This document shows positions 47,789 through 49,351 of a stretch of DNA of 64,000 nt, piece by piece. A program made the translations under genes and the position numbers. The notes beneath the pieces are model-generated. The model saw only the letters and a list, made by a program, of their open reading frames with translations. It was not told where the DNA came from and did no database searches. Numbering within the stretch: the first letter of the stretch is position 1; every line of letters begins with the position of its first letter. This stretch comes from a phage: the NCBI GenBank assembly GCA_033580375.1, contig GCA_033580375.1_4527.1. One strand, written 5' to 3'.

Positions 47789-48359
47789 AAAAGTTTCGGA
47801 TTTGTTCCCAATTCAGAGAACGAAGATTATTACGAGAGTACTGAATTACTTCAATACCAGCTTGTTTTAGAATGTCTGCCCAATTTTCAGGAGATCGGTC
47901 ATATAATTCTGCATATACAACCTTTTTAATACCTGACTGCGTAATAGCTTTAGTACAATCAGGACATGGAGAAAGCGTCGTATATAACGTAGCACCTTCA
48001 ATAGAATTACCTTTACGAGCGGCAAACAAAATTGCATTCAATTCTGCATGGATTTCATTATTAGCAGACCATGCACTATGAGCAGCTCGATGTTCTTTGG
48101 CTAAAACAAAATTATCTACCCGTCCAAATGCTGTAGTGCCTTCTTTATGTCCAGCAACGATGACTGGGATTGGTTTATTCTTCAACCAACCGTTTTCAGA
48201 TGCATGTTCGCAACAGTTAACGCCACCTGCAGGTGAACCGTTATATCCAGTAGAGATAATGCGTCCATCTTTTTCAATGACGGCACCAACTTTCCATGAA
48301 CAACATTTTGATTCTTGAGAAATCAGATATGCAATCTGAAGGTATGTGCTAGCTTTCAT
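47778..48359 (-). CDS. cd: dCMP deaminase
   Basis: 193 aa; zinc-binding HAELNA...SPCPDC motifs of the cytidine/dCMP deaminase family. Confidence 0.9.
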   Translation of the reverse strand: MKASTYLQIAYLISQESKCCSWKVGAVIEKDGRIISTGYNGSPAGGVNCCEHASENGWLKNKPIPVIVAGHKEGTTAFGRVDNFVLAKEHRAAHSAWSANNEIHAELNAILFAARKGNSIEGATLYTTLSPCPDCTKAITQSGIKKVVYAELYDRSPENWADILKQAGIEVIQYSRNNLRSLNWEQIRNFCGE

Positions 48360-49351
48360 TATTGAACCTTATTAATATAAGTTAACAGCTCTTTAGTTTG
48401 TTCCCAACTGATGCACGCATCGGTAACGGAAACGCCATAGGACATATTATCAGAAATTTTTTGATTTCCTTCATGTAGGAACGATTCTATCATAATTCCT
48501 TTGACCAAATCATTAGCTGCTAAATTTTTACCAATACCAATTTGATTGCTATAATGCCCTTCAGCGTTTGCATGGCTACAGTCAACCATTACATAATGAT
48601 TCAGACCTACTGCCCTTGCTTTGTTAGAAGCTTCTTGAATATCAGAAGAATGATAGTTCGGGCCGTTGGTCCCGCCACGCAATACGATATGCGTATTCTG
48701 ATTACCTTCAGCTTCAACAATGCCTACAGTACCATCGACGTCCATACCCATATACCGATGAGGCCAGGCGGCACTATACATCGCGTCTGTAGCTACTTTA
48801 ATAGAACCATTGGTTGCGTTCTTGAAGCCTACGCACATCGGTAGACCTGAAGCAATTTCACGATGTGTCTGACTTTCAGTCGTACGGGCGCCAATAGCAA
48901 CCCATGAGAAAATACCAGAAAGATACTTAATCGTGAATGGGTCTAATACTTCAGTTGCTAATGGAAGTCCCATACGTAGAAGTTTACGACACAATGTTCG
49001 TGCAACTATAAGACCGTGGTTCATATCAAAACTTCCGTCAAGATATGGATCATTTACAAGACCTTTCCAACCTACGGTAGTTCGAGGCTTTTCAAAATAA
49101 ACGCGCATCACTAACAGAACATTAGGAAGACGAGTTTGAAGTTCAGCCAGACGTTTGCCGTATTCAACAGCAGCAATAGGGTCATGAATTGAACAAGGAC
49201 CTACAACAATAAGTTTGCGTGGGTCTTCACCGTTCATAATCGAATTAACTTGTTCGCGATGAGAAGCCACTTGTGATGCGTAAGCTTCCGACAAAGGAAT
49301 AATCTCAGCCAGTTCTTTTGGAGAAATAAGTTTTCCGACGACAGGTAACAT
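48359..49351 (-). CDS. 3-deoxy-D-arabino-heptulosonate-7-phosphate (DAHP) synthase, class I alpha (AroG/AroF-like); auxiliary metabolic gene
   Basis: 330 aa; motifs [51 protein letters not shown] and SVTDACISW match the AroG active site. Stop overlaps the cd start (TAATG). Confidence 0.85.
   Translation of the reverse strand: [330 protein letters not shown]

Follow-up and report, generated by a model that had tools for sequence, protein, structure and literature searches.

Does a T4-like coliphage that encodes its own enzyme for the entry step of the shikimate pathway carry an ordinary copy of the bacterial enzyme, or one whose regulation has been changed? The question is raised by a minus-strand gene in the stretch of phage DNA analyzed here (contig GCA_033580375.1_4527.1, 64,000 nucleotides (nt), referred to as the window), which was predicted from the letters alone to encode a 3-deoxy-7-phosphoheptulonate (DAHP) synthase. 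DAHP synthase joins phosphoenolpyruvate (PEP) and erythrose-4-phosphate (E4P) to form DAHP and thereby opens the shikimate pathway. The E. coli isozymes AroG and AroF are strongly feedback-inhibited, and they are repressed by TyrR when aromatic amino acids are available. The window belongs to a Mosigvirus, a T4-like coliphage, and a 3.1-kb region around the gene shares 97.4-99.4% identity with the 30 deposited genomes that match it best, among them CCU7, the LF82 series, OLB35 and phiC120. The gene appears to encode a catalytically normal enzyme with a changed inhibitor site. The features of the gene on which this reading is based are as follows.

48359..49351, minus strand: predicted coding sequence of a DAHP synthase (type I-alpha, T4-like-phage clade, 330 amino acids (aa)), assigned from open reading frame, profile matches, sequence identity and an AlphaFold2 (AF2) model
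49328..49351, minus strand: short N-terminal arm MLPVVGKL (8 residues vs 17 in AroF and 16 in AroG; the equivalents of AroG residues 1-9 are missing), from alignment
48925..48930, minus strand: codons of Ile141-Lys142, replacing AroG Pro150-Gln151 (AroF Pro151-Gln152), from alignment mapping
48839..48841, minus strand: codon of Pro171, replacing the inhibitor-contacting AroG Ser180 (AroF Ser181), from alignment mapping

The open reading frame (ORF) at 48359..49351 is maximal: it starts with ATG, and an in-frame stop directly upstream makes a 5' extension impossible. Pfam PF00793 (DAHP_synth_1) matches the 330-aa protein with E=3.7e-75, and the NCBIfam model TIGR00034 (aroFGH equivalog) gives 428 bits against a cutoff of 173.2. 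The cutoff of the PRK12755 subfamily model is also passed (455.6 vs 343 bits). The protein scores below the cutoffs of the isozyme models NF006723 for AroG (363.5 vs 568 bits) and NF009396 for AroH (386.5 vs 463 bits), which places it outside both isozymes. Its top PDB sequence match is the Tyr-sensitive AroF of E. coli (6AGM, E=7.5e-105), followed by Neisseria meningitidis DAHP synthase (DAH7PS), the Francisella tularensis DAHP synthase and AroG; all 21 PDB matches are DAHP synthases. BLASTP identity to the E. coli isozymes is 51% for AroF, 48% for AroG and 44% for AroH, so that the phage protein is AroF-like rather than AroG-like, and the "AroG-like" label given to it in the original prediction is replaced here. 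The AF2 model, for which the phage-clade alignment served as input, has a pLDDT (predicted local distance difference test) of 84.5 and a pTM (predicted template modeling score) of 0.87. Superposition on AroG, NmeDAH7PS and the F. tularensis enzyme gives template modeling (TM) scores of 0.91-0.92 (0.92 to 1KFL, 8E0X and 4HSN), and the 50 structural matches listed for it are without exception type I-alpha DAH7PS (TM 0.91-0.92). In this model the beta6a/beta6b hairpin of the I-alpha type is predicted at residues 198-214 (strands 198-203 and 209-214). Judged from sequence and model together, the product is almost certainly a type I-alpha DAHP synthase. The profile and BLASTP searches proposed to separate DAHP synthase from 3-deoxy-D-manno-octulosonate 8-phosphate (KDO8P) synthase gave the former (TIGR00034 and the PDB matches), and the six motifs quoted earlier as the class I-alpha signature are all present in the translation.

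The catalytic residues of the AroG structures (the metal ligands, the PEP and E4P residues and the KPRT motif) were mapped onto the phage protein. The metal site Cys61/His268/Glu302/Asp326 of AroG corresponds to Cys53/His260/Glu289/Asp311 and is invariant in 25 of 25 phage-clade sequences. AroG Arg92, Lys97, Pro98, Arg99, Thr100, Arg165, Lys186 and Arg234 are found as phage Arg83, Lys88, Pro89, Arg90, Thr91, Arg156, Lys177 and Arg225; Gly163 and Ala164 are likewise retained, and the KPRT motif is present. Eleven of these positions were tabulated, and they are kept in all 25 phage-clade sequences and in 98 cellular relatives save for Thr100Ser in three. The view that the enzyme looks catalytically intact is borne out by the alignment to AroG and AroF, in which the metal, PEP and E4P residues are all kept. 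The phage protein is predicted from sequence and model to be a catalytically competent, metal-dependent enzyme with DAHP synthase activity (PEP + E4P to DAHP + phosphate).

The regulatory site is different. The alignment was scanned for columns in which both groups, the 25 phage-clade sequences and the 98 nearest cellular ones, are at least 90% fixed but for different residues. Only six columns in the whole protein were found (AroG numbering): P150I, Q151K, D155G, S180P, F209Y and T223A. All six positions are in or next to the inhibitor pocket. Four of the six are among 10 inhibitor-site or feedback-resistance positions taken from the literature (PMC9529685; hypergeometric P = 5e-6), and Thr223 lies two residues past Val221, another literature-listed position. 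Ile at 150 and Lys at 151 each occur in 24 of 25 phage-clade sequences (96%), with Arg at 151 in one sequence and Pro at 150 in one, and the 98 nearest cellular relatives have neither Ile at 150 nor Lys at 151. Structures of AroG with Phe and of AroF with Tyr show the inhibitor's main chain bound by Gln151/Gln152 and, through its side chain, by Ser180/Ser181; P150L, F209A/S and the classical S180F are feedback-resistant AroG mutants (PMC9529685). The Corynebacterium glutamicum mutant Q159A (equivalent to AroG Q151) keeps at least about 80% of its activity at 50 µM Tyr but is unstable, and no expression was obtained for D163A (equivalent to AroG D155) (PMC9529685). A comparison with engineered feedback-resistant AroG (P150L, S180F, D146N, F209A, L175D) shows that the phage substitutions hit three of the same positions (150, 180 and 209). 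The phage enzyme differs from these mutants in having six co-adapted changes plus an N-terminal truncation instead of one mutation, and in the residues used (I, K, P and Y vs L, F and A). Relative to E. coli AroF (6AGM/6AGL), to which the 51% identity extends across the whole catalytic barrel, the catalytic residues, the specificity Gly, the equivalents of Pro148, Asp147 and Leu180, and the (beta/alpha)8 fold with its hairpin are the same, whereas the phage protein carries Gln152Lys, Ser181Pro, Pro151Ile, Asp156Gly and Phe210Tyr, is 26 residues shorter (about 9 N-terminal, internal deletions of 5 and 3, about 9 C-terminal) and belongs to a clade branching outside enterobacterial AroF. The 41-residue segment with the new pocket residues is nearly invariant among phage genera that are 56-77% identical overall and differ elsewhere by 25-45%.

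The N-terminus is the other altered part of the site. At 330 aa vs 348-356 aa for the E. coli isozymes, the phage protein is 8-9 residues shorter at this end, which agrees with the earlier remark that it is shorter there than the bacterial enzyme. The number of residues ahead of the AroG-17 equivalent is 6-10 in 25 of 25 phage-clade sequences and 14-51 in the 98 cellular relatives. A start-codon artefact was considered and rejected, the ORF being maximal and the clade members all starting at the same place. Asp6, Asp7 and Ile10 of the neighboring subunit help to close the pocket in the AroG-Phe structure. Deletion of Ile11 yields a feedback-resistant AroF (PMC10729320). A broader sample was made of 147 diverse family representatives (clusters at 50% identity), and here a short N-terminus is associated with a non-canonical residue at 151 or 180 (18/72 vs 3/75, Fisher P = 3e-4). 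The association fits arm and pocket acting as one functional unit, subject to joint loss or change; some of it may come from truncated metagenomic gene calls. The canonical inhibitor pocket (Gln151, Ser180, Pro150 and the N-terminus of the neighboring subunit) is absent from the phage protein; it is regulatory, not catalytic, so family membership stands. As to loss of the allosteric site, for which a structural check had been proposed, the alignment shows residues 150, 151 and 180 replaced, a short arm and several pocket residues kept, and the model predicts the hairpin. With the pocket residues replaced and the arm short, the enzyme is most likely inhibited poorly or not at all by Tyr, Phe and Trp, and from the alignments we lean, by a modest degree, toward loss or strong reduction of this inhibition.

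The phage proteins form a lineage of their own. A search that returned 8000 homologs (E <= 1e-40) was used to define a phage group, consisting of the top 23 clusters and one more, at 55-98% identity. The nearest cellular proteins, from Planctomycetota, Pontiella, Pseudomonadales and enterobacterial AroF, are only 50-55% identical. Neighbor-joining recovers the phage group as monophyletic in 191 of 200 bootstraps, and enterobacterial AroF does not enclose it (best cellular identity <=54%). The phylogenetic comparison with AroF, AroG and AroH that had been suggested gives a separate phage clade. The GC content at third codon positions (GC3) is 0.30 for the DAHP synthase gene, 0.31 +/- 0.085 for the phage background and 0.50 for E. 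coli aroF. Recent capture of a host aroF, aroG or aroH gene was rejected on these grounds (cellular identity <=54%, 191/200 monophyly and phage-like GC3). The ratio of nonsynonymous to synonymous substitution rates (dN/dS) between genera is 0.14-0.22, with dS near saturation. The sequences indicate that the clade is old, selected, phage-resident and confined to T4-like phages of Enterobacterales, and that its presence varies among genomes.

The explanation that we consider best as a whole, and reasonably probable, is that of an early-expressed, catalytically normal phage DAHP synthase whose aromatic off-switch has been dismantled or re-purposed. The enzyme would be made early from the mRNA of the pseT-cd interval, along with dCMP deaminase. 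Lys and Pro in place of Gln151 and Ser180, together with about 9 fewer arm residues, would leave the inhibitors with little or no effect. T4-like phages shut off host transcription; after this shut-off the phage enzyme may keep carbon flowing to chorismate despite inhibited or repressed host AroG and AroF. The benefit would count in aromatic-replete surroundings such as amino-acid-rich gut contents. Possible products served are aromatic amino acids for phage proteins, p-aminobenzoate and folate for dTMP and hydroxymethyl-dCMP, and quinones; a metabolic benefit through aromatic amino acids or folate is suggested by this scheme. The aromatic content of the window ORFs (Phe+Tyr+Trp 9.75%, Tyr 4.1%) is slightly higher than that of E. 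coli (about 8.3%), a difference too weak for use as evidence. A link to the arabinosyl-hydroxymethylcytosine DNA modification of RB69 was also considered and was rejected, since RB69 has no DAHP synthase gene.

Several observations weigh against this explanation. Asp146, Leu179, Val221 and the AroF-type Pro at AroG position 147 are retained in the phage pocket; the Gly at the Tyr/Phe specificity position (AroG Ser211/AroF Gly212) is kept, and the beta6a/beta6b hairpin is predicted. With these pocket residues and the hairpin in place, the enzyme may still be inhibited in part or in an altered way. A re-purposed ligand site would explain the strict conservation of the new pocket residues as well as a silenced one would. 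Among the 147 family representatives, Gln151 is found in 55% and Ser180 in 65%, while Pro180 occurs in 15% and Lys151 in 3%. The canonical residues are missing in about 35-45% of diverse members, which means that non-canonical pockets arose many times and that the single substitutions are not phage-specific. The idea that the pocket substitutions are unique to phages holds only in part: the 98 nearest cellular relatives lack them, yet Pro180 and Lys151 appear sporadically among the 147 representatives. T4 and RB69 dispense with a DAHP synthase gene. No dedicated promoter was found for the gene, and sigma-70-like matches are no more frequent than chance predicts (16 vs 15.9 expected). Mosigvirus copies of the gene differ by no more than 10 of 990 nt, with 0-3 synonymous differences per pair and a ratio of nonsynonymous to synonymous polymorphism (pN/pS) of 0.5-1.5; these substitutions are too few to show selection, and the ratio is uninformative and carries no weight. 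In the searched literature there is no enzyme assay or phage knockout for a phage DAHP synthase, and only two descriptive mentions were found.

The phage protein could still be an ordinary AroF-type, Tyr-inhibited enzyme whose extra copies replace decaying host enzyme, the pocket changes being neutral or compensatory. The Tyr-sensitive AroF is its best E. coli and PDB match, the PRK12755 cutoff is passed, the specificity Gly and AroF-type Pro148, Asp147 and Leu180 are kept, and the hairpin is predicted. However, both main-chain contacts are replaced (Q152K and S181P), Pro151 is Ile and the arm is about 9 residues short; changes at such positions, or the Ile11 deletion, lower inhibition in characterized enzymes, and the divergence from cellular relatives is concentrated in exactly the inhibitor site. 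We regard this explanation as unlikely. The rebuilt pocket might instead bind another effector (chorismate, prephenate, or a nucleotide- or folate-related metabolite), making the enzyme re-regulated rather than unregulated. Such a site would account for new residues and a 41-residue segment that are near-invariant, which is more constraint than a dead site needs; a Lys for Gln could pair with an anionic ligand, the gene stays by nucleotide-metabolism genes, and a second viral lineage with S180P and F209Y (described below) adjoins a thymidylate kinase gene. The ligand is purely hypothetical, though, the 41-residue segment also has PEP-binding (GARTTESQ) and dimer-interface residues that could by themselves explain its conservation, and the adjacency to cd is broken in two genera, so that binding of another effector is given a rather low probability. 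Its most specific form, in which the invariant Ile-Lys...Gly...Pro...Tyr...Ala pocket is re-wired to sense a non-aromatic, phage-relevant metabolite (a folate/p-aminobenzoate intermediate or a deoxynucleotide), is speculative and quite improbable. If it were true, entry into the shikimate/chorismate pathway would be coupled to folate-requiring thymidylate and hydroxymethyl-dCMP synthesis, and the lasting position beside nucleotide-metabolism genes would be explained.

A further possibility is that the gene is a passenger ("moron") in a hyperplastic region, without a significant role in infection, kept by linkage and heading for loss. Neither T4 nor the congeneric RB69 carries it, the interval is rich in small variable ORFs and homing endonucleases, and the within-genus pN/pS is not clearly below 1. 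But the gene is full-length in 213 of 213 phage records, the checked catalytic residues are invariant in the phage clade, dN/dS between genera is 0.14-0.22, the position is kept across several genera and the base composition is fully ameliorated; a mere passenger is doubtful. A KDO8P synthase or other PEP-utilizing aldolase was rejected, and its chance is negligible. PF00793 does span both enzymes, and one genome paper loosely ties the domain to lipopolysaccharide synthesis. Against these stand the TIGR00034 score (428 vs 173), the presence of KPRT and of the Cys/His/Glu/Asp site, and the lack of any KDO8P synthase among the 21 PDB matches and the 50 listed fold matches, all DAHP synthases. 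The two outcomes named beforehand as fatal to the assignment (matches to KDO8P synthase, or substituted catalytic residues) are excluded as far as sequence and fold show. A catalytically normal enzyme with its aromatic off-switch dismantled or re-purposed is the reading we retain.

The gene itself is not new. A tblastn search matched the phage protein in 213 phage records, all with full-length genes and 140 at >=95% identity; the usual annotation is phospho-2-dehydro-3-deoxyheptonate aldolase, aroF or DAHP synthase. PHROG 5045, in the category "moron, auxiliary metabolic gene and host takeover", matches it end to end (2.9e-182). This group covers Mosigvirus, Kanagawavirus, Bragavirus and T4-like phages of Klebsiella, Serratia, Erwinia and other hosts, and the window protein is a member with no material difference. 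Its identity reaches 99.7% with proteins of many deposited phages, O157 typing phages 3 and 6, phiC120 and the LF82 series among them; for the JS09 protein the value is 98.8%. The phiC120 genome paper noted a DAHP synthetase domain in ORF 64 (PMC8022965), and a study of phages of Klebsiella sp. M5al listed the homolog of Kanagawavirus KLB31 among auxiliary metabolic genes, with a possible part in aromatic amino-acid synthesis (PMC11845039). The regulatory site is not discussed in these two papers or in the annotations of the phage homologs. The gene and the auxiliary-gene idea are already known, and it is the analysis of the regulatory site that goes beyond existing annotation. The usual marks of an auxiliary metabolic gene are found: a host-type enzyme in the genome of a virulent phage, a place in the Mosigvirus pseT-cd interval and thus apart from the core modules for replication and structure, the between-genus dN/dS given above and the PHROG category.

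T4 carries cd.1-cd.5 between cd and pseT and lacks a DAHP synthase there. The Mosigvirus type species, RB69, goes from cd directly to cd.2, also with no DAHP synthase (NC_004928 133742..134502), and its lack of the gene indicates a presence/absence polymorphism within the genus. The original prediction had stated that T4 has no such gene and that the DAHP synthase sits in the T4 cd.x interval, and the comparison with T4 confirms both. It had also called the gene the clearest non-T4 module of the window; absence from T4 stands, but with about 140 near-identical phage records, PHROG 5045 and two papers it is not a new discovery. The pseT-cd interval holds homologs in Edwardsiella phage PEi20 (Kanagawavirus), Klebsiella phage EI and Proteus phage PM2 (Bragavirus) as well. 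In EI and PM2 the DAHP synthase gene and cd are split by two homing-endonuclease genes or two small ORFs. The pseT-cd position is ancestral, and physical coupling to cd is not obligatory. The gene had been described as fused into the cd operon, which is overstated given the intervening genes of EI and PM2 and the absence from RB69. Homing-endonuclease genes (MobE-, SegB- and Seg-like) lie beside the DAHP synthase gene in EI (4510..5048) and PM2 (2106..2822), and these insertions in other genera mark the pseT-cd interval as a hotspot for mobile insertions. The RefSeq record of Shigella phage phi25-307 mislabels the dCMP deaminase gene (1293..1590) as "ribD" (its note reads "riboflavin biosynthesis protein RibD"), an error that stems from the deaminase domain common to both. 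We consider it very likely that the DAHP synthase gene is an early accessory gene; most sequenced Mosigvirus relatives and phages of several other genera have it, and T4 and RB69 do not.

The order of genes on the minus strand of the window is pseT, cd.4, 74-aa ORF, cd.3, cd.2-like ORF, 51-aa ORF, DAHP synthase, cd, 31.1 and 31, and the 51-aa ORF and the DAHP synthase gene together occupy the position of T4 cd.1. The features of this neighborhood are listed below.

51861..51889, minus strand: best sigma-70-type (early-promoter-like) site, TTTACA-17-TATAAT, 11/12 matches, candidate only
50446..51345, minus strand: pseT, first in transcription order
50255..50446, minus strand: cd.4, after pseT
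Between cd.4 and cd.3, minus strand: 74-aa ORF
49767..50042, minus strand: cd.3, after the 74-aa ORF
49472..49813, minus strand: cd.2-like ORF, between cd.3 and the 51-aa ORF
49360..49515, minus strand: 51-aa ORF (phrog_15876, hypothetical protein in related phages), directly upstream of the DAHP synthase gene, from ORF and PHROG match
49357..49361, minus strand: Shine-Dalgarno-like AAGGA, 5 nt ahead of the DAHP synthase ATG and overlapping the stop of the 51-aa ORF, read from the sequence
48357..48371, minus strand: junction with cd, where TAAGG (48371..48367), within the 3' end of the DAHP synthase gene, precedes the TAATG overlap, read from the sequence
47778..48359, minus strand: dCMP deaminase gene (cd), 193 aa, next gene downstream and in the same direction (dCMP_cyt_deam_1 1.6e-26; PHROG 174; 72.5% to T4 Cd)

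The TAA stop of the DAHP synthase gene (48361..48359) and the ATG of the cd ORF share one base, CAATAATGAAA, and TAAGG is placed 7 nt ahead of the cd ATG; the TAATG overlap with the dCMP deaminase start reported earlier is seen in the sequence. The site at 51861..51889 is a candidate start for a transcript through pseT, cd.4, cd.3, cd.2, the DAHP synthase gene and cd. No terminator-like sites were found on the minus strand between this site and cd, and no Rfam families or tRNAs in or around the DAHP synthase locus. ORFs on the plus strand opposite the gene (48542..48844 is one) were interpreted as antisense by-products of its long reading frame. By analogy with T4, early polycistronic expression is expected, and the DAHP synthase and dCMP deaminase are probably both translated from one early mRNA.

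Some other observations were made in this region. The 51-aa ORF has a further, weak match to phrog_1504/DUF7320, to which the neighboring cd.2-like ORF belongs, and may be a degenerate duplicate. The cd.2-like ORF has 113 aa vs 76 aa in T4, and its Pfam match begins at residue 36, which puts the true start probably inside the ORF. A MotA-box-like middle promoter (TATGCTTTA, 12 nt, TATTAT) lies at 47453..47479 on the minus strand, just upstream of gene 31; it is the sole such match in 47000-52300, where 0.26 is expected by chance. The gp31 co-chaperonin ORF (47090..47422, minus strand) is 96% identical to T4 gp31. Its neighbors are lower (31.1 44%, cd 73%, pseT 74%), which suggests that gene 31 was recently exchanged by recombination with a T4-type phage.

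Other viral DAHP synthases in IMG/VR, from metagenome-assembled genomes of giant viruses and from large viral contigs, belong to the same family with 40-52% identity, and the catalytic residues are kept in the full-length ones. Among 80 viral loci in IMG/VR, only the ten T4-like ones have the full pocket signature, and most of the other 70, which are largely from giant-virus genome assemblies, keep the cellular residues. Two loci on large viral contigs, L022 and L024, are partly similar (Q151N, D155H, S180P, F209Y and T223S), and a few others carry single substitutions such as Q151H. The grouping of L022 and L024 with the T4-like clade is not robust (88/200 bootstraps). In L022 (2956..4005 of the 261.8-kb contig IMGVR_UViG_3300028829_003504) a 349-aa DAHP synthase is encoded between genes for a eukaryotic-type topoisomerase IB and a thymidylate kinase. 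The L022 type is a second viral lineage with a remodeled regulatory site beside a dTMP-pathway gene. Dozens of putative giant-virus DAHP synthases (loci L026-L089, on IMG/VR GVMAG contigs) are 40-48% identical to the phage protein, with mostly cellular-type regulatory residues. Some of the family representatives, P0121 (799 aa) and others of 600-800 aa, have two DAHP synthase-like stretches or long extra domains and would be tandem or fused forms.

Auxiliary genes of amino-acid pathways are few in well-studied coliphages that are easy to manipulate, and the DAHP synthase gene is one of them; most auxiliary metabolic genes are known only from metagenomes. Its remaining value lies in a testable idea, that of a natural, probably feedback-insensitive DAHP synthase in genetically tractable coliphages. 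If feedback inhibition is abolished, the phage clade would represent a stable, multi-substitution answer where engineers use single and often destabilizing AroG or AroF mutations, and its enzymes would be ready-made deregulated DAHP synthases for the production of aromatic compounds.

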